This document shows, in pieces, positions 172 to 54,959 of a stretch of 55,607 nucleotides of DNA. Source of the DNA: Candidatus Portnoybacteria bacterium RIFCSPHIGHO2_02_FULL_39_12 (lineage in GTDB: Bacteria > Patescibacteriota > Minisyncoccia > Portnoybacterales > UBA2143); assembly GCA_001819555.1 (NCBI GenBank), contig MHMZ01000012.1, forward strand, positions 1 to 55,607, written 5' to 3'. A program made the position numbers and the translations under genes. Below the pieces are notes generated by a model. It was not told the origin of the DNA. It saw nothing but the letters and a program-made list of their open reading frames with translations, and did no database searches. How positions within the stretch are numbered: position 1 is the first letter of the stretch; every line of letters begins with the position of its first letter.

Positions 172-2103
172 ATGACCATGAAAAGCGCCCTATCTATCCT
201 TAATCCACAACAACAAGAAGCGGTCAAAACTATCCAAGGCCCGATTTTAGTTATGGCCGGGCCGGGTGCGGGGAAAACCCGTGTCTTAACCCGCCGCATT
301 GCTTATATTATCCAAAAAGGCGTCAGGCCGGAAAATATTCTGGCCGTTACTTTTACCAATAAAGCGGCTGAAGAAATGAAAAAAAGAGTGAGCAAACTTA
401 TTGGAAATAACAGCGTCTTTCAAAAACGCCTGATTAAATGCCTGCCAACTATCGGCACTTTTCACTCAGTCTGCGTTCAGATTCTTCGCCGGGAAATAGA
501 CAAACTGGGCTATCGGAAAAACTTTATCATTTACGACTCAAAAGACCAGCTTTCCTTAATGAAACAAATCATCAAAGACCTTTTGATGAATCCCGAACAG
601 TTTAAACCGGCTACTCTTTCAGAAAATATTTCACGGGCCAAAGACGAGTTGGTTGACGCCCAAACCTACCAGAAAAGAGCCGATGAATACTGGCCTAAAA
701 AAATAGCGGAAATTTATCTAAAATATCAGACCGCCCTTAAAAAAGCGAATGCCTTGGATTTTGACGATTTGATTATGCTCACAGTCCGACTTTTTCAAAA
801 AGAGCCGGCGGTTTTAGAAAAATACCAAAATAAATGGCAATATATTCTGGTTGACGAAGCCCATGACACAAATTTTTCCCAATACCGGCTGATTAATCTT
901 TTAGCTCAAAAACATAAAAATCTTTGCCTTATTGCTGATCCAGACCAATCAATTTATTCTTGGCGCGGGGCTGATTTTAGAAATATCCTGAATTTTGAAA
1001 AGGACTATCCGGAAGCCAAGGTTATTCTCTTAGAGCAAAACTATCGCTCCACTCAAAATATCTTAGAAGCCAGCCATCATGTCATTGTTAAAAACAAAGA
1101 GCGCAAAGAGAAAAAGCTATGGACAGAAAACACGGTCGGCCCGCTGATTCAGATTGCCGAAGTAGCAAACGAACAAAAAGAAGGAGATTTTATTGTCAGT
1201 GAAATAAAAAATTTATTGAATCAACATTCGCACTCGCTTAATCTTAAGGACTTTACGGTTCTTTACCGAACCAACGCTCAATCCAGAGCCATTGAAGAGG
1301 CTTTTCTTAAAGCCAATTTTCCCTATAAAATCATCGGCGCGGTCAGATTTTATGAACGAACAGAAATAAAAGACATTTTGGCCTATTTAAAACTATTGAT
1401 TAACCCGAATGATTCAGTCAGCCTTCAAAGAGTTATCAATGTGCCGCCGCGGCGGCTGGCTAAATATAAATTGGAGCAGCTCCATTGGAGCAGTTCTTCT
1501 AAAGAACTGCTCCAATGGAGCTGCTCCAATGCGGCCAATGCGGCTCTCCGTTTTCAAGCTCTTATCCAATCCCTTTACCAAGCTAGTCAAACACTGCCTC
1601 TAAGCAAACTCATCAATCTTATTGTTCAAAAAACCGATTATGAAAATTATATTAAAAACAAAAACGAAGATGGCGAAAAGCGTTGGGAAAACATCCAAGA
1701 GCTTCTGACTGTAGCCAATAAATACAATAAAATTAAACCCCCTTTGGGGCTTTCCCGATTTCTGGAGGAAGTTTCACTTCTAAACCACGCTGATGAAATA
1801 AAAACCGAAAAAGACCTGGTCAACCTAATGACTCTTCATTGCGCCAAGGGCTTGGAATTTCCGGTGGTTTTTATGGCCGGCTTAGAAGAAAGTATTTTCC
1901 CTCATAGCAAAAGTCTGTTTGACCCGGCTCAAATAGAAGAAGAAAGGCGGCTCTGTTATGTGGGGATGACGCGGGCAAAACAAAAACTCTATCTAACCTT
2001 TGCCCAAAAAAGGCGGATTTACGGCAGTCTAATGGTTAACCCTCCTTCCAGATTTCTTTTAGATATTCCGGAACATTTGATAGAATTTTACGCAGGAACA
2101 TAA
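172..2103 (+). CDS. uvrD: UvrD/PcrA-family superfamily-1 DNA helicase
   Basis: 643-aa ORF with Walker A GPGAGKT, motif II LVDEAHDT, YRSTQNIL, TLHCAKGLEFPVVF and VGMTRAK motifs. It carries an in-frame 59-bp palindrome at 1471-1529. Confidence 0.93.
   Translation: MTMKSALSILNPQQQEAVKTIQGPILVMAGPGAGKTRVLTRRIAYIIQKGVRPENILAVTFTNKAAEEMKKRVSKLIGNNSVFQKRLIKCLPTIGTFHSVCVQILRREIDKLGYRKNFIIYDSKDQLSLMKQIIKDLLMNPEQFKPATLSENISRAKDELVDAQTYQKRADEYWPKKIAEIYLKYQTALKKANALDFDDLIMLTVRLFQKEPAVLEKYQNKWQYILVDEAHDTNFSQYRLINLLAQKHKNLCLIADPDQSIYSWRGADFRNILNFEKDYPEAKVILLEQNYRSTQNILEASHHVIVKNKERKEKKLWTENTVGPLIQIAEVANEQKEGDFIVSEIKNLLNQHSHSLNLKDFTVLYRTNAQSRAIEEAFLKANFPYKIIGAVRFYERTEIKDILAYLKLLINPNDSVSLQRVINVPPRRLAKYKLEQLHWSSSSKELLQWSCSNAANAALRFQALIQSLYQASQTLPLSKLINLIVQKTDYENYIKNKNEDGEKRWENIQELLTVANKYNKIKPPLGLSRFLEEVSLLNHADEIKTEKDLVNLMTLHCAKGLEFPVVFMAGLEESIFPHSKSLFDPAQIEEERRLCYVGMTRAKQKLYLTFAQKRRIYGSLMVNPPSRFLLDIPEHLIEFYAGT
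1471..1529. repeat. Palindromic repeat, family A, copy 1, in frame inside uvrD
   Basis: TTGGAGCAGCTCCATTGGAGCAGTTCT / AGAACTGCTCCAATGGAGCTGCTCCAA arms. Translated as LEQLHWSSSSKELLQWSCSN. Confidence 0.9.
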
Positions 2104-2181: not shown

Positions 2182-3111
2182 ATGAACAATAAAAATTTCT
2201 ACAAAACCCTCCTCAAAAAATACCATTTTCGGCCCTCCAAGCGTTTGGGCCAGAATTTTTTAATTGATAAAAAAGTTCTTAAAAAAATTATTGAGACAGC
2301 TGATTTATCGCCGGAAGATACTGTTTTAGAAATCGGGCCCGGCTTGGGCGTTTTAACCAAAGAACTGGCCAAAAGAGCTAAAAAAGTCATCGCCGTGGAA
2401 AAAGATAAAAGAATGGCTGAAGCGCTAAAAGAAGTTTTAAAAGATTATAAAAATGTGGAAATTATAGAGAGTGATATACTCAAATTAGCTTGGAGCAGCT
2501 CCATTGGAGCAGTTCTGAAATTCAGAACTGCTCCAATGGAGCTGCTCCAAGCCCAATTTAAACTCATAGCCAACCTTCCCTACTACATCGCCTCGCCGGT
2601 TATCCGTCTTTTTTTAGAAACTGAAAATCCGCCAAAACAAATGGTTTTAATGATTCAAAAAGAAGTGGCCCAAAGGATTTGCGCTAAACCGCCCAAGATG
2701 AGTTTATTATCTGTTTCAGTCCAATTTTACGCTGAACCAAAAATAATCAGCTATGTTTCACGAAAATCTTTTTGGCCCCAGCCAAAAGTTGATTCGGCGA
2801 TAATTAAGATTGCGCCTATTCGCTTTTTGGAGCAGAAATTTTTGGAGACAGCTCCAATAAAATTGAAGACTGCTCCAAAAATTTCTGCTCCAAAAAGCGC
2901 CATCCTTCGGGAAAAATTCTTCAAAATAGCCAAAGCCGGCTTCTCTTCCCCCCGAAAACAATTAGCCAATAACCTCTCCAAAAAACTTAAAATAGACAAA
3001 GACAAAATTAAAAAAGCCCTGCTTGATTGCGGGCTTGAGCCGGAAATAAGAGCCGAGAGTTTGTCAGTAAAAGATTGGATGAAGCTTAATGAAAAACTGT
3101 CATCTTTATAA
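2182..3111 (+). CDS. rsmA: 16S rRNA (adenine1518/1519-N6)-dimethyltransferase RsmA/KsgA
   Basis: 309 aa with LGQNFL, the SAM motif VLEIGPGLGVLT and the catalytic ANLPYYI motif. It is longer than usual because of two in-frame palindromic inserts (2490-2550 and 2823-2899). Confidence 0.92.
   Translation: MNNKNFYKTLLKKYHFRPSKRLGQNFLIDKKVLKKIIETADLSPEDTVLEIGPGLGVLTKELAKRAKKVIAVEKDKRMAEALKEVLKDYKNVEIIESDILKLAWSSSIGAVLKFRTAPMELLQAQFKLIANLPYYIASPVIRLFLETENPPKQMVLMIQKEVAQRICAKPPKMSLLSVSVQFYAEPKIISYVSRKSFWPQPKVDSAIIKIAPIRFLEQKFLETAPIKLKTAPKISAPKSAILREKFFKIAKAGFSSPRKQLANNLSKKLKIDKDKIKKALLDCGLEPEIRAESLSVKDWMKLNEKLSSL
2490..2550. repeat. Palindromic repeat, family A, copy 2, in frame inside rsmA
   Basis: The 61-bp sequence is identical to the copy at 18261-18321. 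Translated in a different frame from the uvrD copy, as AWSSSIGAVLKFRTAPMELLQA. Confidence 0.92.
2823..2899. repeat. Second palindromic insert in rsmA, related to family A (CTTTTTGGAGCAGAAATTTTT ... AAAAATTTCTGCTCCAAAAAG)
   Basis: Perfect 21-bp terminal arms. Translated as LEQKFLETAPIKLKTAPKISAPKS. Confidence 0.8.
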
Positions 3112-5443: not shown

Positions 5444-5511
5444 GTCATTCTGAACGAAGTGAAGAATCCCGTGGAATTAAGCGCCGGATCCTTTACTTCG
5501 CCCAGAATGAC
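5444..5511. repeat. Palindromic repeat, family D (GTCATTCTGAACGAAGTGAAGAATCCCGT ... GGATCCTTTACTTCGCCCAGAATGAC), intergenic copy
   Basis: Imperfect inverted repeat. It is related to 18677-18752 and to half-sites at 32744-32782 and 54075-54095. Confidence 0.8.
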
Positions 5512-17048: not shown

Positions 17049-18161
17049 ATGCTCAAAAAAACTCTTATTATCTTAATTATCCTGCTTGTCCTTGTGGCGG
17101 GAACTTTAGTGGTCTATAATTTCTTCTTTAAAAAAGAAGCGGCGCCGGTCGTCACCGAAGAATTGCCTGAAGAAAAAATAACTCCTTCTCCAACTGCTAA
17201 AATTAAGCCAATTTCCCAAGAGCCGGTTTTAGCGCCGACCATAGACAATCAAAAGATTAAATATTATTTAGCCAATAACGGCAATGTTTTTGAGTCAAAT
17301 TTTGACGGCTCGGATTTAGAACGTCTTACTTCTAACGCGCTTCAAGGTCTTAAATATATTATTTGGGCGCCGAACAAGACAAAAGTCATCGGTATCTTTG
17401 AAAAAGACGGAGAAGTTAAAAAATATTTTTACGACTATCAAACAAAAAAATCAGCCCTGCTTAACCAAAATATCCAATGGCTGACCTGGTCGCCTGACAG
17501 CCGGCAAATCGCCTATCAATATTACAACCCCCAAACCCAGGAAAACTACATCAGTTTGGCCGATCCCGACGGTTCAAACTGGCAAAACGCCTTTAAGACC
17601 AGAATCAAAGACATAATCGTAGAATGGCCGAAAAAAGAGCTGATTTCTTTAAGAACCAGGCCGAGCGGCCTGGCCCAAAGCGAGCTTTATACGCTCAACC
17701 CCCAAACCAGCGCCTTTCAAAAAGTTTTAAGCGGCATTTACGGCTTAAGCGCGCTTTGGTCGCCTTCCGGAGAAAAATTTATTTTTTCCCAGACAAATAG
17801 CGACGGCCGCAATCTGAAATTAAAAATAACCAATAAAAACGGGGAGGCGCCCAAGGAATTAAATGTTTTGACTCTGCCTGAAAAATGCGTTTGGAGCCAA
17901 GACGAAAGATATGCGTTCTGCGCTGTCCCCTCGGCTCTCCCCCCTCAAGCTATTCTGCCGGATGATTATTATAAAGAAACTTTCTCAACGGCCGATGACT
18001 TTTATAAAATAAACACAGAAACCAATCAAAAAACGCTTTTAATTGAACCGGAGCAAATGGAAAGCGACTATGACGCTACTTCGCTCCTTCTCTCGCCCCA
18101 AGAAGATTATTTGTTTTTTGTGAATAAGAAAGACGGGCTGTTATACTCGCTAAAGCTATAA
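17049..18161 (+). CDS. Membrane-anchored TolB-like beta-propeller protein
   Basis: 370 aa with an N-terminal TM segment and repeated W(S/A)P(D/S)(G/S)..I(A/F) motifs (LTWSPDSRQIAY, ALWSPSGEKFIF) typical of PD40/TolB blades. Confidence 0.6.
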   Translation: MLKKTLIILIILLVLVAGTLVVYNFFFKKEAAPVVTEELPEEKITPSPTAKIKPISQEPVLAPTIDNQKIKYYLANNGNVFESNFDGSDLERLTSNALQGLKYIIWAPNKTKVIGIFEKDGEVKKYFYDYQTKKSALLNQNIQWLTWSPDSRQIAYQYYNPQTQENYISLADPDGSNWQNAFKTRIKDIIVEWPKKELISLRTRPSGLAQSELYTLNPQTSAFQKVLSGIYGLSALWSPSGEKFIFSQTNSDGRNLKLKITNKNGEAPKELNVLTLPEKCVWSQDERYAFCAVPSALPPQAILPDDYYKETFSTADDFYKINTETNQKTLLIEPEQMESDYDATSLLLSPQEDYLFFVNKKDGLLYSLKL

Positions 18162-19407
18162 TCAACCAAAAAATAATCGCCAAGTCATTTTTCCAATATG
18201 TGGTGTCTACTAAGCCGTGGATTAAGATATAAACCATGGCGGCGCTTAAAAAGCGAGAAATTGGAGCAGCTCCATTGGAGCAGTTCTGAAATTCAGAACT
18301 GCTCCAATGGAGCTGCTCCAATTTAAATCTGCTAAAAAACCAAATCAACAACAAAATAAAACCAATCAACCCAATCAAGCCGGTCTGGAGCCAAAAAGCA
18401 AGAAAAAGATTATGGGGCTGGGACGCGGCCCATTCTAAATATGGCTTAAATTTCGGCTGATAGGCCAAATAATACCTCTGAAACAAACCCGGGCCAACCC
18501 CCCACAAAAAATTGTGGGGGGTGGTTTTTATTATCTCTATGGCTGTCCGCCAAATTATTAAACGGGATTCCAAAGACGAACGGGAAAAATTAAGGATATT
18601 TTGAAATTTTTCGGTTTGGAGTTGAGAAAAAATCAAAAGAGTAATGGCCAAAGCAATAAAAGAGATAATAATTATCGTCATCCTGAGCGAAGCGAAGGAT
18701 CCCGTGGCAAAGACTATAAATCTACGGGATCCTTCGCTTCGCTCAGGATGACATCTAATGCCTACAAAAAAACCCAAAGCTACAATCAGTCCCAGCCAAG
18801 CGCCATGAGAATAAGTCAAATAAATAACAACTAACAACAAACAACTAACAACTAACAACAATAGTTTTTGCCAGCTATCTTTTAAAAACCCCCACAAACC
18901 AAAGCCCAGAATCAAAATCGGCGTCAAATACATGGCTAAATGGTTAGGCGAAAGATAAAAGGCCTTAAGCCGGCCATCATAAGTCAAATCATCAAAAAAC
19001 CAATACCAAAGACCGATCACCGCCACCCCCCCGCCGGAGATAGTTAAAGCAATTAAAATATCCCGAATCTGCTTTTGATTTTTAACTGAATCTAAAAACA
19101 CTATAAAAAAGAGCCAAGGCGCCATAAACCAGCCCTTCCAAATGCCGGCGCTCACCAAAAGGTCGGCCGAGAATAAAGTGGAAATAGTCAGACCGAGAAA
19201 AATTAAAAATATTGGAAAAACAAAAGCCGCTCTCCACTTAATAAACAAGGAACGCCCTCGCTTTTCTATCAACCACAAAACAAATACTCCATAAATGAGC
19301 AATTCTAAAATTGTCAATGGAATTAACCAGATTTTTAGCTTAAACAGATAAAGAGGTAAAACCAAAATAATTAAGCAGATTCCAAAATGGATAATCTTTT
19401 TGAGCAT
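18076..19407 (-). CDS. O-antigen ligase-like (Wzy_C family) polytopic membrane protein
   Basis: 443 aa, multi-TM, with QPHNLFLAFWLQTGLIG matching the Wzy_C HN..L....E.G..G signature. It contains two in-frame palindromes (18261-18321 and 18677-18752). Its 3' end overlaps the convergent gene by 86 bp. Confidence 0.7.
   Translation of the reverse strand: MLKKIIHFGICLIILVLPLYLFKLKIWLIPLTILELLIYGVFVLWLIEKRGRSLFIKWRAAFVFPIFLIFLGLTISTLFSADLLVSAGIWKGWFMAPWLFFIVFLDSVKNQKQIRDILIALTISGGGVAVIGLWYWFFDDLTYDGRLKAFYLSPNHLAMYLTPILILGFGLWGFLKDSWQKLLLLVVSCLLLVVIYLTYSHGAWLGLIVALGFFVGIRCHPERSEGSRRFIVFATGSFASLRMTIIIISFIALAITLLIFSQLQTEKFQNILNFSRSSLESRLIIWRTAIEIIKTTPHNFLWGVGPGLFQRYYLAYQPKFKPYLEWAASQPHNLFLAFWLQTGLIGLIGFILLLIWFFSRFKLEQLHWSSSEFQNCSNGAAPISRFLSAAMVYILIHGLVDTTYWKNDLAIIFWLIIALASITARLSYSQKTNNLLGAREGAK
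18261..18321. repeat. Palindromic repeat, family A, copy 3, in frame in the O-antigen ligase-like gene
   Basis: Identical 61-mer to 2490-2550. Translated as LEQLHWSSSEFQNCSNGAAPI. Confidence 0.92.
18677..18752. repeat. Palindromic repeat, family D, in frame in the O-antigen ligase-like gene
   Basis: GTCATCCTGAGCGAAGCGAAGGATCCCGT ... ACGGGATCCTTCGCTTCGCTCAGGATGAC with perfect 29-bp arms. Translated as HPERSEGSRRFIVFATGSFASLRMT. Confidence 0.92.
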
Positions 19408-20711
19408 AGACCTAAAATAATCATTAAAATAGCCAAAATAACCGGCGAATAAATTGCTGTTTCAAAAATACTATGAACTGAAAAATAAACTAAAGAGCTA
19501 ATTAGAGCCACATTAAGATGGCTATGCTTGTGCAATTCGAGGATGGCGCTTCGCGCAAAATTTTCTTTATCCTCGAAAGGCGCGGGGTAAAGCTGCCAAA
19601 TTGTCCCAAAAATCAAAATCAGCCAAATAATCAAAGCGAAAATGCCTATTTCAGAAAAAAGGTCCAAATAAAAATTATGAGCGGTTGCGGGATTGCGATA
19701 TTCAAAATCCGGGTCAATACTCAAAGAATAATTGCCCAAACCCAAGCCCAGCCAAAGATGCTCTCGGCTTAATTGGCCGGCTGACTGCCACATTTCTAAA
19801 CGACCAACATTGGAACCCTCTGTCAAATTAAAAGTAGAATAAAAACGGGCCGAAATGGGCGTGCCCGGAATAAAAAAAATCAATAAACTCAACAAAAGTA
19901 AAATGGCTATTTTTTTTGAATTAAGTTCTTTCCACAAAAGCAAAGCCAAAACAAGAAAGGCGGCTATCAGAGCCAGGTAGGCCCCGCGGACAAAACTTAA
20001 GGCAAGGCCGGCAAACAGCAAACAGCAAACAGCAAACAGCAATTTTTTATAATTTACAGAAATTAAATATAGGGTAATCGCTAAAGGTAAAATAAGTCCG
20101 AGATATAAACTAAATATATGCGGGTCGGAAAAAAGAGAAAAGCCGCGCATTATGGTTTGGCCGGAGATATTAACCAGCCAGCTTGGGTAAGCTAAAATCA
20201 AAGCGCCGAAATTAAAACCGGAAAAAACAGGCACAATGCTTAAAGCCCAGAAACCATAAACTTTTTCCAGACCAAAGACAAATTGAGCCAAAAATTGGAT
20301 TAAACCAATTAAAGCCATTAATCCGGCGCCCGCCGCCAAGACCCAAACTGCTTTTTTAAATTTTTGCCAATTATCAATTAAGCCGCTGACTAAAAAATAA
20401 AGAGGGAAAACAGAAAGAAAAAATAAAAATTTTCGCAGTCCCCACCAATAATTTTCAGCCGCCAAAATAGAAAGGCCGCTGATAAATAAAAAAAATAATA
20501 AGCAAATAGTTCTTAAATTGACCAGATGTGGGGGGCTTGGTTTCCCACATTTTGATATGGGAAGTTCAGCCTCCCACGTAGCTTTCGTCAACCAAATAAA
20601 AAATAACAATAAAATAAAAACCCGGCCGGAAGCTAAATCAAAGCCGGGCCAAAGATTTAAAGCAACCTGAAAAGGAAGATAAGCAATAAGGAGAAGAAGC
20701 CAAGAATACAT
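19371..20711 (-). CDS. Second O-antigen ligase-like (Wzy_C family) membrane protein
   Basis: 446 aa, multi-TM, with the AHNFYLDLFSEIGIFAL signature. Overlaps the downstream paralogue by 37 bp. Contains a heptanucleotide tandem repeat at 20011-20042. Confidence 0.7.
   Translation of the reverse strand: MYSWLLLLIAYLPFQVALNLWPGFDLASGRVFILLLFFIWLTKATWEAELPISKCGKPSPPHLVNLRTICLLFFLFISGLSILAAENYWWGLRKFLFFLSVFPLYFLVSGLIDNWQKFKKAVWVLAAGAGLMALIGLIQFLAQFVFGLEKVYGFWALSIVPVFSGFNFGALILAYPSWLVNISGQTIMRGFSLFSDPHIFSLYLGLILPLAITLYLISVNYKKLLFAVCCLLFAGLALSFVRGAYLALIAAFLVLALLLWKELNSKKIAILLLLSLLIFFIPGTPISARFYSTFNLTEGSNVGRLEMWQSAGQLSREHLWLGLGLGNYSLSIDPDFEYRNPATAHNFYLDLFSEIGIFALIIWLILIFGTIWQLYPAPFEDKENFARSAILELHKHSHLNVALISSLVYFSVHSIFETAIYSPVILAILMIILGLCSKRLSILESA
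20011..20042. repeat. Tandem heptanucleotide repeat (AAACAGC) x ~4.5 inside a coding region
   Basis: GCAAACAGCAAACAGCAAACAGCAAACAGCAA. Related (GAACAGC)n tracts lie at 43351-43376 and 45483-45513. Confidence 0.9.
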
Positions 20712-32703: not shown

Positions 32704-32854
32704 ACGAGTGATGTGAAATTCAATTAGTTTATTCCCTGAGCGGAGCGAGCGAAGCGAGCGAAGTCGAAGGGTCTTTAGCCTTCAATGCGGCGCCTTCGAC
32801 GCCTTACTCAAGTAATAATAGTCATTTTAAGCTAAGGAATTTCACATCACGCGT
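32704..32854. mobile_element. MITE-like element with 18-bp terminal inverted repeats and a 10-bp target-site duplication
   Basis: The TIRs are ACGAGTGATGTGAAATTC (32704-32721) and GAATTTCACATCACGCGT (32837-32854), with 1 mismatch. They are flanked by the direct repeat AAGACCCGTT at 32694-32703 and 32855-32864. The interior carries family-D-like CCTGAGCGGAGCGAGCGAAGCGAGCGAAGTCGAAGG. Confidence 0.7.
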
Positions 32855-51811: not shown

Positions 51812-52034
51812 TGGATTTTCTCAAAATTTTCAAGCCGATAGACGCAGAAAATTTTGTTAGAAAACCTTTACCGAGCACTCAGCGTGAATTATCTAAACTT
51901 TTGTTATAAATCAATAAACTTTGGTTTAAAGAATATAAGCTGGTAGTTCACACTGAGTGCTCGGTGCTCAATTTTGCAGCGAAATTTTGTTCGCTCAAAC
52001 AAAGTTTTCGCTCCAAAATTTCGATAAAATTGGC

Positions 52035-54959
52035 ATGCAGGAAATTTCTAAAACAGAAGAAAAAATACTGGAATTTTGGGAGCAAGAAAAAATCTTTGAG
52101 AAAACGCTTAAAAACAGGGAGAAAAACAAATCCTACGTTTTTTACGACGGTCCGCCTTTTGCCACTGGTCTGCCTCATTACGGCCATATTCTGGCTTCAA
52201 CTATTAAAGATGTGATTCCCAGGTATTTTACGATGAGGGGCTTTTACGCGCCTCGGCGCTGGGGCTGGGACTGCCACGGTCTGCCCATTGAAAATATTAT
52301 TGAACAAAAACTAAAAATCTCCGGCAAAAAGCAGATAGAAAAAATCGGCATAGAAAAATTTAATTCCGCCTGCAAGGAAGCGGTCTTAGAATACGCTGAT
52401 GAATGGGGTAAAATGGTTCGCCGCATTGGTCGCTGGGTGGAATTTGAAAATTCCTATAAAACAATGGAAAACAAGTATATGGAGTCGGTCTGGTGGGCAG
52501 TTAAGCAAATCTGGGATAAAGGATTGATTTATCAAGGAAGAAGAGTTTTGCTTTACTGCCCCCGTTGTGAAACGCCGATTTCTAATTTTGAAGTGGCCAT
52601 GGACCAAAGTTATCGCGACTTAAAAGAAGAAACAATTACGGTTAAATTTAAAGCTAAAAATCCAGAGAAATATAATTTGCCAAAAAACACTTATTTTCTG
52701 GCTTGGACAACTACCCCCTGGACCTTGCCGGGCAACGTAGCTTTGGCCATTGGCGGAGATATTGACTATATTTTAGTTAAGCAAGGCAAGGAAAATTATA
52801 TTTTAGCCGAGGCGCGCCAAGGCGCGCTTAAAGGGAATTATCATCTTATTAAAAAGATAAAAGGCAAGGATTTAGCCGGCCTTGAATATGAGCCGCTTTT
52901 TGAAATTGAAAGCATAAAAAAGACCGACGCGAAATCCCACTATGTAGCCGCAGCTGACTTTGTTTCAACCGAAGAAGGAACCGGCCTTGTTCATATTGCG
53001 CCGGTCTATGGCGAAGATGATTATAATTTGGGCCTTAAATTGGGCTTGACGGTCGTTCCTCTGCTTAACGAACAAGGCGTGTTTAATAAAAAAGCGCCCA
53101 AATTTATTCAGGGAAAATACTTTGAAGAAGCTGAAGAGCCGATTAAAAATGACTTAGAAAAAAGAGGCCTGCTTTACAAAAAAGAAGAGATGGCTCATTC
53201 GTATCCTTTGTGCTGGCGCTGCGAAACCAAACTTTTTTACAACGCCATTCCGGCTTGGTTTATAAATATCCAAAAAATCAAGCGCCGGCTTTTAGAATTA
53301 AATGAAAAAATCAACTGGTACCCGGCGCACCTAAAACAAGGTCGGTTTAAAAAAGGCATTGAGAGCGCGCCGGACTGGAATATTTCCCGCAATCGCTACT
53401 GGGCCACGGCTCTTCCGATTTGGCAGTGTGAAAACAGGAAATGCGAGCATAAAATTTGTTTAGGTAGTTTTAAGGAACTAAAAGAAAAAGCTATAAATTA
53501 TAAACAGGTCTATCAATCGGAAAGATTAGAAGAAGTTGATTTGCATAAGCCCTATATTGACGCGATTAAATTAAAATGCGCAAAGTGCGGCAAGGCGATG
53601 TCAAGGATTCAGGAAGTCATAGATTGCTGGGTTGAGTCCGGCTCAATGCCTTTTGCCGAACTTCATTATCCTTTTGAAAATAAAGAGTTGTTCAAAAAAC
53701 GTTTTCCGGCCCAATTTGTGGCTGAATATACTTCTCAAACCAGGGCCTGGTTTTATGTTATGCATGCGGTTTCAACGATTATTTTTGATAAAGCCCCTTT
53801 TGAAAATGTGGTCGCCACCGGCAATATCTTAAACGAAAAAGGCGAAAAACTTTCCAAATCAAAAAGGAATTTTCCCGACCCTTGGGGGCTCATAGAAAAA
53901 TACGGAGTGGACGCTTTGCGTTATTATCTGATGAGTTCTGCGTTGATGAAAGCGGACGATTTATTTTTTAAGGAATCAGAAGTTGACGAGGTTTATAAAA
54001 AAGTGATACTTATTATTTCCAATGTTTTGTCTTTTTATAAAATGTTTGAAGAAGGGACAGGAAAGAGGTTATTGCCTGAGCGAAGTCGAAGGCATACCTT
54101 GTCTCAAAAAAATATTCTTGACAAATGGATTTTAGCGCGGCTTCACGAGCTAATTAAAAAAACAACAGAGAGTATGGATAAATATAATGTGGTTTCCGGC
54201 GCTCGGCCGATTGGCGAATTTATTCAGGATTTATCTGTTTGGTATTTAAGAAGAAGCCGGGAAAGAATAAAGAGCGAAGATAAAAAAGATAAAGAACAAG
54301 CGCTGGCTGCCCTCCGCTATTCGCTTTTAGAACTTTCAAAAATAATGGCGCCAATTACTCCATTTATAGCCGAGCATTTATACAAAAATACAGGCGGAAA
54401 AAAAGAGAGCGTTCATTTAGAAAATTGGCCAAAATACGATAAAAATTATATTGACTCCCCTGTTCTGGAGAATATGAAAACCGCAAGAGGTATTGTTAGT
54501 TTGGCTTTGGAAAAAAGAGCCGCGGCCGGCATTCCGGTCAGACAGCCCTTAAACTTATTAATCATTTACGGGCAAAAACTATCCGATGATTTTGTCGTTC
54601 TTATCAAAGACGAAGTAAATATCAAAAAAGTAGAATTTAAGAAGCAAAAAAAAGAGCTTAGAGTAGAGCTGGATACCAAAATAACAGAAAAACTTAAAAA
54701 AGAAGGTATTTATCGCGAATTGGTTCGTCAGATAAATGATTTGCGAAAAAAAGCCGGACTAACCATTAAAGACAATATCTTGCTTTATTTTGAAACAGAT
54801 TCTAATCTTATTTTATCCGCGATAAAGAATTTTGAAAAAGAACTAAAAAAGGCGGTAATTGCCACGCAGATTAAAAGAGAGAAAAGAGAAACGCAAGAAA
54901 ATAAAGAACTTCAAATACAAAACGAAAAAATTTGGCTCGGTATTGACAAATCTCAATAG
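52035..54959 (+). CDS. ileS: Isoleucyl-tRNA synthetase (type 2-like)
   Basis: The start was moved to the ATG at 52035 (MQEISKTEEKILEFW). HIGH motif as PHYGH, KMSKS motif as KLSKSK, and zinc-knuckle pairs CPRC and CWRC. The protein is 974 aa. Confidence 0.93.
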   Translation: MQEISKTEEKILEFWEQEKIFEKTLKNREKNKSYVFYDGPPFATGLPHYGHILASTIKDVIPRYFTMRGFYAPRRWGWDCHGLPIENIIEQKLKISGKKQIEKIGIEKFNSACKEAVLEYADEWGKMVRRIGRWVEFENSYKTMENKYMESVWWAVKQIWDKGLIYQGRRVLLYCPRCETPISNFEVAMDQSYRDLKEETITVKFKAKNPEKYNLPKNTYFLAWTTTPWTLPGNVALAIGGDIDYILVKQGKENYILAEARQGALKGNYHLIKKIKGKDLAGLEYEPLFEIESIKKTDAKSHYVAAADFVSTEEGTGLVHIAPVYGEDDYNLGLKLGLTVVPLLNEQGVFNKKAPKFIQGKYFEEAEEPIKNDLEKRGLLYKKEEMAHSYPLCWRCETKLFYNAIPAWFINIQKIKRRLLELNEKINWYPAHLKQGRFKKGIESAPDWNISRNRYWATALPIWQCENRKCEHKICLGSFKELKEKAINYKQVYQSERLEEVDLHKPYIDAIKLKCAKCGKAMSRIQEVIDCWVESGSMPFAELHYPFENKELFKKRFPAQFVAEYTSQTRAWFYVMHAVSTIIFDKAPFENVVATGNILNEKGEKLSKSKRNFPDPWGLIEKYGVDALRYYLMSSALMKADDLFFKESEVDEVYKKVILIISNVLSFYKMFEEGTGKRLLPERSRRHTLSQKNILDKWILARLHELIKKTTESMDKYNVVSGARPIGEFIQDLSVWYLRRSRERIKSEDKKDKEQALAALRYSLLELSKIMAPITPFIAEHLYKNTGGKKESVHLENWPKYDKNYIDSPVLENMKTARGIVSLALEKRAAAGIPVRQPLNLLIIYGQKLSDDFVVLIKDEVNIKKVEFKKQKKELRVELDTKITEKLKKEGIYRELVRQINDLRKKAGLTIKDNILLYFETDSNLILSAIKNFEKELKKAVIATQIKREKRETQENKELQIQNEKIWLGIDKSQ

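Follow-up and report, generated by a model that had tools for sequence, protein, structure and literature searches.

We analyzed 55,607 nucleotides of contig MHMZ01000012.1 (positions 1 to 55,607, hereafter the window; contig C12) from Candidatus Portnoybacteria bacterium RIFCSPHIGHO2_02_FULL_39_12 (assembly GCA_001819555.1), a Patescibacteria (candidate phyla radiation, CPR) genome of 712 kb in 38 contigs, with 39.6% GC and 93% completeness. In this window, an open reading frame (ORF) for a Wzy_C/WaaL-like membrane protein of the O-antigen-ligase family carries two unrelated long palindromes, here called family A and family D. Very probably, these are two different repetitive extragenic palindrome (REP)-type elements that landed independently in two short cytoplasmic loops of a working ligase gene, where they are tolerated and translated, family A having been placed there by a REP-associated tyrosine transposase (RAYT) and family D in trans or by another route. 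The gene exemplifies, in an extreme form, a type of selfish DNA that is already known, and represents neither a new mechanism nor a dying gene.

An inverted-repeat search of positions 18000-19500 returned exactly these two long palindromes, and their motifs had no match in 100 dinucleotide-preserving shuffles. The family A palindrome that an earlier note on this DNA had described at 18261-18321 proved to be the core of an element with perfect 33-nt arms, and the family D element was found exactly where that note had placed it, with perfect 29-bp arms 18 nt apart (Table 1). Both were said to lie in the ORF without stop codons, and translation of the 443-aa ORF confirmed that they are stop-free and in frame. 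The family D insert reads as CHPERSEGSRRFIVFATGSFASLRMT (residues ~219-244), and the family A insert, whose core consists of two copies of TTGGAGCAGCTCCATTGGAGCAGTTCT, reads as LEQLHWSSSEFQNCSNGAAP (residues ~362-383). As RNA, the elements had predicted minimum free energies of -60.6 kcal/mol (family D, z -13.8) and -59.8 kcal/mol (family A, z -14.8). Read from the sequences, each D arm is open in two of its three frames and family A in two, plus a third depending on its centre.

The assignment of the host gene to the O-antigen ligases held. Pfam Wzy_C (PF04932) matched the ORF with an E-value of 2.7e-19, and the protein has ~1000 homologues, most of them 380-415 aa long, the best named of which is from Candidatus Portnoybacteria. 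An AlphaFold2 model built on an alignment (mean predicted local distance difference test score [pLDDT] 80, predicted TM-score [pTM] 0.82) had the O-antigen ligase WaaL (7TPG) as its sole significant fold match in the PDB (E 2.3e-4, TM-score 0.54-0.58). The host protein shares with WaaL a 12-helix polytopic fold and a large periplasmic domain between transmembrane helices 9 and 10 (TM9-TM10) with conserved Arg and His residues; it differs in being 17% identical (TM-score ~0.55) and in bearing two repeat-encoded loop extensions on the predicted cytoplasmic side. The traits of the Wzy_C/WaaL family are thus present in the host gene, namely the Wzy_C domain, the 12-TM fold and the conserved Arg and His, which are periplasmic by the WaaL match. 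In a 23-sequence alignment, all family-invariant residues were retained (e.g., R282, the GxGPG motif and Q330-P331-H332-N333). Because dN/dS against the closest orthologue (locus L004) was 0.23 (402 codons; dS 0.84), the gene is under purifying selection and is not decaying, and the gene decay considered in the earlier note gives way to an intact frame with its invariant residues kept. As part of our best explanation, the ORF would encode a working glycan ligase or polymerase of the WaaL/Wzy_C type. CPR cells lack an outer membrane.

The pLDDT of the model fell below 50 solely at residues 227-237 (D insert) and 371-378 (A insert). The flanking helices spanned residues 201-219 and 238-262 around the former, and 334-368 and 381-400 around the latter, so that both inserts fall between helices and the disruption of transmembrane helices that the earlier note had allowed for was not seen. 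On this model, both inserts would be cytoplasmic, with D in the TM8-TM9 loop and A between TM10 and TM11. We assign them to this side because of helix parity (12 helices, N-in start), the positive charge of the short loops, and the WaaL-like Arg/His domain at residues 263-333; in the established topology of WaaL, the conserved Arg/His domain is periplasmic. The inserts would accordingly sit on the face opposite the predicted periplasmic catalytic domain. The earlier suggestion of tolerated loop insertions in a polytopic membrane protein therefore stands on three observations: extra residues relative to more than 20 orthologues, low pLDDT at the inserts, and positions between helices.

In the 23-sequence alignment, both inserts appear as extra residues within variable stretches between hydrophobic helices. 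Comparison with orthologues, which the earlier note had suggested, showed that proteins of 380-415 aa lack both segments, as does the 414-aa orthologue of the same-genus representative (G001). The closest orthologue (P0002, locus L004), encoded in the syntenic order YidC-Jag-flippase-Wzy_C-Wzy_C, lacks the D insert; where the family A insert sits in the window gene, it has GGAGCAGCTCC(CC), the family A core, three times in tandem. It also carries a palindrome in its TM2-TM3 loop. In orthologue P0022 (locus L149), the TM8-TM9 loop contains a D-type dimer (TGTC-ATTGC...GCAAT), and a 46-nt perfect palindrome (CTCCAAGGACTGTCCTTGGAG...) encodes essentially the entire TM10-TM11 loop. Orthologue P0113 (locus L150) has GC-rich palindromes in both of these loops, and the Wzy_C orthologues of G001, G004 and G017 have no palindromes in their loops. 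The TM8-TM9 and TM10-TM11 loops are thus either permissive hot spots that were hit repeatedly or old occupied sites with sequence turnover. Within the cluster of proteins at 90% identity, all four members, from ~21 contigs, contain both inserts, and the shorter members differ merely in their start-codon calls. The recurrence of this protein in many independent contigs, and of the repeat families at many loci, led us to reject an assembly artefact.

Family A occurs at 23 loci in the genome, at least 8 of which lie inside Pfam-supported genes. It is a doublet of inverted units with arms of 27-33 nt, each holding the small palindrome GGAGCAGCTCC, and its symmetry is maintained, with 12 substitutions mirrored on both arms versus 2 one-sided ones. 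The genome encodes three Y1_Tnp (PF01797) genes. One of these, RAYT-1 (C38:8947-9537, 196 aa; Pfam Y1_Tnp 47 bits, cut-off 23), has intact NHLHLLL (HUH) and YIHLNP motifs and is bracketed by family A palindromes 8 and 3 nt from the ends of the ORF. Its paralogues RAYT-2 and RAYT-3, which are 33-43% identical to RAYT-1 and to one another, are each bracketed by a repeat family of their own (ACTATGGAGGTT and TTTAGGAGCCTCGCTCCTAAA). The 16-mers that flank the three genes are the most abundant 16-mer families of the genome (56, 29 and 16 copies), the family A 16-mer beside RAYT-1 ranking second with 29 copies, and this abundance reproduces the diagnostic of Bertels et al. 2017 (PMC5581495). Of 18 other genomes in the same taxonomic family, 8 encode a RAYT-1 orthologue (54-72% identity); no perfect palindromes surrounded these genes under strict settings, and looser settings revealed that they adjoin differing, lineage-specific, imperfect palindromes. 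Across the phylum, 58 of 201 evenly sampled genomes contain RAYT-like genes. Family A is therefore a REPIN-like repeat and the cognate of RAYT-1, which lies on another contig.

Several further loci touch these families. RAYT-3 has its own cognate palindrome (FRSLAPKVFRSEAPK) in frame inside its coding sequence (C33:46541-46587; L003:1740-1786). The KsgA/RsmA gene of the window, which carries a family A copy (Table 1), contains a second palindrome with 27-nt arms (TTTTTGGAGCAGAAATTTTTGGAG...) at 2821-2899, so that two elements reside there too. A ValRS-like gene (C11:60-3101) harbors a family A copy as well as a complete His_Phos_1 domain (E 8e-44) inserted within the synthetase. Finally, a 1256-aa ORF with an intein-like N-terminal part (C23:1761-5585) combines a family A copy with a D-like arm (GLLRSPDGSLAMT).

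Family D has a different architecture. Its unit is GTC-ATCCT-GA-GCGAAGC-GA-AGGAT-CCCGT, and the element is a head-to-head dimer of such units. A single arm, (C/T)GTC-AT-CCT-GA-GC-GAA-GC-GA-AGG-AT-CCC, is predicted to form a stem of 5 bp that continues past a 2x2 internal loop (GA/GA) into a GC/GC stem capped by GAA, which gives nine stem positions, five Watson-Crick, two G.A and two G-C (AT-CCT-GA-GC / GC-GA-AGG-AT). The GCGAAGC at its centre is what we take to be the very stable d(GCGAAGC) mini-hairpin. The two arms of the window copy differ in their tag, one having CGTC and the other TGTC, and copies elsewhere in the genome mostly have T before GTC. At the ~17 loci in this genome, the stems are compensated (ATCCT/AGGAT, ATTCT/AGAAT, ATTGC/GCAAT, ATCCC/GGGAT and ATTCC/GGAAT), and the AT positions are conserved in mismatch-tolerant matches. 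In both families, the flanks merely extend the palindrome (A/T, TT/AA), and since the whole element is an inverted repeat, a target duplication would be indistinguishable from it. None of the three genomic RAYT genes is flanked by family D (0/3).

The only two perfect D dimers of the genome are both intragenic, one in the RsmI gene (C12:65306-65380) and one in the Wzy_C gene. They share a similar spacer (GGCAAA..), and the inner stem is switched between ATCCT/AGGAT and ATTGC/GCAAT on all four half-stems, a coordinated change that is hard to reach via single mutations. The other copies of family D listed in the earlier note fared unequally. The one at 5444-5511 is a real intergenic dimer, as described, but a diverged one with 4 mismatches per arm. 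The half-site at 54075-54095 is indeed a D-like hairpin inside a 1000-aa ORF, but it has no GTCAT tag. The copy reported inside a miniature inverted-repeat transposable element (MITE; 32744-32782) amounts to a loose resemblance at 32735-32775.

The motif census that the note had called for was carried beyond the genome with the pattern GTCAT-NNN-GAGCGAAGCGA-NNN-ATC, applied to one genome per GTDB species. At least 120 stretches in more than 15 phyla matched, where our own calculation predicts ~4 matches by chance. Among the matches listed, 131 of 143 units had Watson-Crick pairs at the three free stem positions, and the stem types numbered at least 9; of 130 units, 103 had T and 20 had C before GTCAT, and 52 had an inverted partner within 110 nt. 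The AT positions of the stem are fixed by the search pattern and hence are not independent evidence in this external set. The tail, CCC in the window copy, is mostly CTC or CTG elsewhere. Within the same order, the motif was present in 24 of 59 genomes, versus none with a reversed-pattern control. Among IMG/VR viral contigs, 96 stretches contained it, and 106 of their 116 units were Watson-Crick paired (8-9 stem types over this set and the one from GTDB species). A blastn search of collections of cultured phages and plasmids gave no match. Rfam contained no known RNA family for it, returning merely generic miRNA-hairpin models far below gathering scores, and a literature search did not find the D sequence.

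Some of these external copies are arranged in particular ways. In a 46.8-kb low-GC viral contig (IMGVR_UViG_2808606664_000001; L173, L207, L211, L212 and L229), the spaces between genes contain no fewer than 12 single D units, all identical (GTCATGTTGAGCGAAGCGAAACATC), and a Bacteroidaceae metagenome-assembled genome contains seven tandem 105-bp repeats with one D unit in each (L010:3563-4217). In two relatives (L139 and L140, from G041 and G040), D units occupy orthologous intergenic positions around rpmF-nusB-rnc; pairs of D spaced ~950 bp apart in relatives yielded no mobilizer, as they merely bracket these genes. Small GIY-YIG nuclease genes lie within ~100 nt of D at 2 of the 120 listed external loci (L015 and L016), and degenerate GIY-YIG remnants adjoin D-type or GCGAAGCGAAGC-containing hairpins in the genome itself (C6:4156-4332 and C33:15617-15795), which makes a GIY-YIG gene a weak lead for a partner of D.

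To place the two elements in the context of the whole genome, we took a census of palindromes with perfect arms of at least 14 nt and loops of at most 30 nt. It yielded 197 palindromes in ~10 families, versus ~0.1 expected by chance according to our own calculation. A crude greedy ORF set (672 ORFs, 85.6% of the genome) contained 71 of the 167 palindromes that are not AT-rich, 57 of them deep inside 49 ORFs. Palindromes are thus depleted in coding DNA but not excluded from it (43% inside ORFs versus 86% coding). Genes with two elements are not unique to the ligase: eight ORFs contained two palindromes, versus 3.9 expected (P ~0.02). Pfam envelopes span elements in ValRS, a UvrD-like helicase, KsgA, WecG, a sigma-70 factor, PheT, a Mur ligase, RsmI, SecA and GrpE. 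No set of genes split by out-of-frame palindromes emerged, the 28 abutting cases being full-size neighbouring genes, and the non-genic palindromes fill narrow gaps that mostly separate co-directional genes. Homologues of SbcC and SbcD were not detected in this 93%-complete genome, whereas the controls were positive in 12-13 of 14 reference genomes; the absence of the palindrome-cleaving nuclease SbcCD may help long, loop-less perfect palindromes to persist.

These observations suggest a path by which hairpin-forming REP-type elements would be copied into single-stranded DNA. By analogy with IS200/IS605 elements and with RAYT biochemistry, family A would most likely be copied by RAYT-1 as a single-stranded DNA hairpin at replication forks. 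For family D, which lacks its own transposase in this genome, movement in trans or by another route is presumed. Because the genome is ~86% coding, many insertions would strike genes. Copies in permissive loops that preserve the frame and bring no stop codon into it would survive, and these would be neutral and translated as ~22-26 added residues.

Both families resemble known systems. The Rickettsia palindromic elements (RPEs), reportedly described by Ogata et al. in 2000, are likewise short palindromic selfish repeats that lie in frame in protein genes, including housekeeping genes, of a small genome without a transposase of their own, and they are translated as surface or loop segments, as would be the case for the A and D inserts. 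The Wzy_C gene shows the same combination of in-frame insertion, intact gene and fold-compatible sites. Differences lie in the host phylum (here Patescibacteria/CPR), in the length of the elements (~60-76 nt versus ~100-150 nt for most RPEs), in the D loop, an 11-nt nested mini-hairpin GA-GCGAAGC-GA compared with the 4-5-nt loop of the RPE-4/-6 class, and in the range of D-type units, which unlike RPEs extend over more than 15 phyla and viral contigs. The link between RPEs and family D is drawn from the features of the CGTC class that they share (PMC3733652).

That class, the CGTC-tagged REP superfamily of Di Nocera et al. 2013 (PMC3733652), comprises four families in five phyla and includes RPE-4 and RPE-6 of R. 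conorii. Its members have a tag that is often TGTC, 8-9-bp stems opening with complementary AT, 4-5-nt loops and a CCA tail; they are mostly head-to-head dimers without a dedicated transposase, and some copies are intragenic. Family D agrees in its tag, its AT-opening stem of ~9 positions, its short C-rich tail, its dimer habit, the absence of a transposase and its intragenic copies. It departs from the class in the CCA tail and the 4-5-nt loop, its loop being GAA within GA-GCGAAGC-GA (11 nt when Watson-Crick pairs alone are counted), and its range takes in many more phyla, Patescibacteria and Acidobacteriota among them. Judged by its sequence features, family D belongs, as a dimer with a (T/C)GTC tag, to the REP class of Rickettsia RPE-4/RPE-6, of which it is an undescribed and very widespread member. 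Family A in turn shares with REPIN-RAYT systems (Nunvar 2010; Bertels & Rainey 2011, PMC3116915; Bertels et al. 2017) an HUH/Y1 gene bracketed by hairpin doublets that contain genome-top 16-mers, a separate repeat family for each RAYT, and lineage-specific repeats at orthologous RAYTs. It differs in its perfect, often loop-less palindromes without a GTAG tag, in the presence of three RAYT paralogues with three families in a 0.7-Mb CPR genome, and in the placement of the copies, which in REPIN-RAYT systems are essentially extragenic; here, about a third to 40% of them sit in frame within genes (at least 8 of 23 for family A, 71 of 167 for all palindromes). A literature search for REPIN/RAYT systems or in-frame palindromes in CPR gave nothing relevant. 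The tie between family A and a RAYT, the placement of family D in the CGTC/TGTC class and the further two-element ORFs all go beyond what the earlier note had recognized.

The neighbourhood of the host gene holds further palindromes. The adjoining paralogue, which the earlier note had proposed for comparison, contains neither A nor D, and a decayed inverted pair of another family (ATGTGGGAAGTTTAGCCTC type) lies in frame within it at 20532-20573, with further copies at C20:978, C25:3256 and C27:12085. A third small palindrome of the host gene (predicted -21.7 kcal/mol) adds 3 aa (TTPHNFLWGV) directly N-terminal of the conserved GxGPG in the periplasmic domain; this peptide is identical in the distant orthologue P0005 and absent from the closest orthologue.

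Table 1. Features of the window discussed in the text, with the peptides expected from the host gene.
Feature	Position	Strand	Description
UvrD-like helicase gene, family A copy	1471-1529		In frame in the gene (172-2103), within the UvrD_C envelope
KsgA/RsmA gene, family A copy	2490-2550		In frame in the gene (2182-3111); 100% identical to the Wzy_C copy
Diverged family D dimer	5444-5511		Intergenic; 4 mismatches per arm
Wzy_C/WaaL-like O-antigen-ligase-family membrane protein gene	18076-19407	-	443 aa; 12 predicted TM helices; Pfam PF04932
Family A element	18258-18324		Arms 18258-18290 and 18292-18324, 33 nt each, 100% complementary, 1 nt between
Third small palindrome	18496-18523		ACCCCCCACAA-AAAA-TTGTGGGGGGT; 28 nt, inside the Wzy_C gene; single occurrence in the genome
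Family D element	18677-18752		Arms 18677-18705 and 18724-18752, 29 nt each, 100% complementary, 18-nt spacer
Wzy_C paralogue	19371-20711	-	Adjoins the host gene; distant, 23% identity; without A or D
D-like single hairpin	54075-54095	+	TGCCT-GAGCGAAGTCGA-AGGCA; no GTCAT tag; inside 1000-aa ORF 51957-54959
Tryptic peptides			Expected if the inserts are translated, e.g., FIVFATGSFASLR and LEQLHWSSSEFQNCSNGAAPISR

Several results weigh against independent insertion of mobile elements into a working gene. RAYT-1 scored 79.9 bits against NCBIfam REP_Tyr_transpos, 0.1 bit short of the cut-off of 80, and a phmmer search against PDB sequences returned no match for it; the consensus of family A has, in or beside it, no GTAG tag of the kind found at the hairpin foot of classical RAYT-associated REPs. 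Searches around family D were equally negative: tblastn of the three RAYTs against the 120 listed D-bearing loci found nothing, and all-vs-all clustering of the neighbouring ORFs revealed no shared family, the largest group being ordinary sensor or regulator genes at no more than 5 of the 120 listed loci. No empty-site allele exists among the four members of the 90% cluster, and close relatives offer no clean empty site that would fix insertion boundaries, target sites or duplications. Rather than one recent insertion, the family A site may represent an old one that has been remodelled, because the closest orthologue has three tandem GGAGCAGCTCC units there. Lastly, translation of the inserts and current mobility of the families, like their target sites, are matters that we infer.

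Other explanations account for part of the evidence. That the palindromes are kept for the benefit of the host, as mRNA hairpins that slow ribosomes between transmembrane segments or stabilize the message, as DNA targets of a dimeric protein, or as peptides that are useful in the loops, seems to us unlikely. The mirrored substitutions of family A (12 versus 2) suggest that symmetry is actively preserved, but a hairpin-dependent transposase would likewise demand symmetry. The same two loops bear palindromes in several orthologues, yet the families involved are unrelated across lineages and many orthologues have none. Both perfect D dimers are intragenic and differ by a coordinated stem switch, two-element ORFs exceed expectation (8 versus 3.9, P ~0.02) and each hairpin is very stable at about -60 kcal/mol, all as a useful structure might be; against this, the same elements also occur in unrelated genes and intergenic gaps, and palindromes are depleted in ORFs (43% inside versus 86% coding). 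Still less probable is a decaying pseudogene that is open by luck. Three palindromic insertions in one gene and an adjoining paralogue that could cover its function are what such decay might look like, but the 443-codon frame is open, the invariant residues are all kept, including R282 and H332 of the periplasmic domain, dN/dS is 0.23, the fold is confidently predicted outside the inserts, an identical protein occurs in ~21 contigs of several sources, and like elements occupy essential genes such as those for ValRS, PheT and SecA.

We find it hardly credible that the inserts go untranslated, with the hairpins cut from the mRNA or hopped by the ribosome. Perfect stems of 29-33 bp would admittedly be strong substrates for RNase III or roadblocks for ribosomes, but every intragenic copy examined is in frame and stop-free in the frame used, and no set of genes is split by out-of-frame palindromes. 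Removal of the inserts is disfavoured because this constraint on frame and stops would then be needless, and we know of no such excision or hopping mechanism for bacterial mRNAs. Hardly any weight, too, attaches to a local origin in place of transposition, in which fragile sites that code for loops would give rise to palindromes through template switching or fold-back synthesis. It would suit the many copies that are perfect through their centre and loop-less, the lack of a detected SbcCD to remove such structures, and the small palindrome of the Wzy_C gene that is unique in the genome. Families A (23 loci) and D (~17 loci), however, share long identical sequences at unrelated sites, the families track RAYT genes, and family D is common to many phyla and viruses, so that a local origin is already unlikely for A and D and stays an option just for the 28-nt palindrome at 18496-18523. 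We therefore retain the insertion of two REP-type elements into loops of a working ligase gene as the best explanation.

A broader reading, which we offer tentatively, as a possibility rather than an expectation, combines two ideas: both ligase loops would be long-lived landing sites that are overwritten by whichever REP family is active in a lineage, and family D would be a bacteria-wide, phage-carried REP class built on the GCGAAGC mini-hairpin, with mobilizing or maintaining machinery that may be universal, for example linked to replication or repair. The landing-site part is suggested because the 46-nt palindrome of P0022 fills its TM10-TM11 loop and L004 holds a remodelled A-type array there.

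REPs are extragenic by name, and the Rickettsia RPEs are the textbook exception; to our knowledge, intragenic REPs have otherwise been reported only in scattered cases. The present genome adds RPE-like intragenic REPs and a variant of the REPIN-RAYT system in a phylum for which the searched literature describes none. In this ultra-small groundwater CPR genome, perfect palindromes sit in ~7% of ORFs, essential genes included, beside three intact RAYT genes. Family D ties CPR, Acidobacteriota, Bacteroidota, phage contigs and the Rickettsia RPE class together through one covarying hairpin, and its spread sharpens the question of what moves CGTC-type REPs. The repeat-derived peptides HPERSEGS, SFASLRMT, VILSEAKD and WSSS..GAAP are worth recognizing in annotation and in alignments of CPR proteins. 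The genome thus offers a natural system for the coexistence of hairpin transposons with a compact genome, the tolerance of loops to new sequence, and the seeding of new protein sequence. If the ligase loops are indeed long-lived landing sites, mobile palindromes would be a regular source of loop sequence in CPR proteins.

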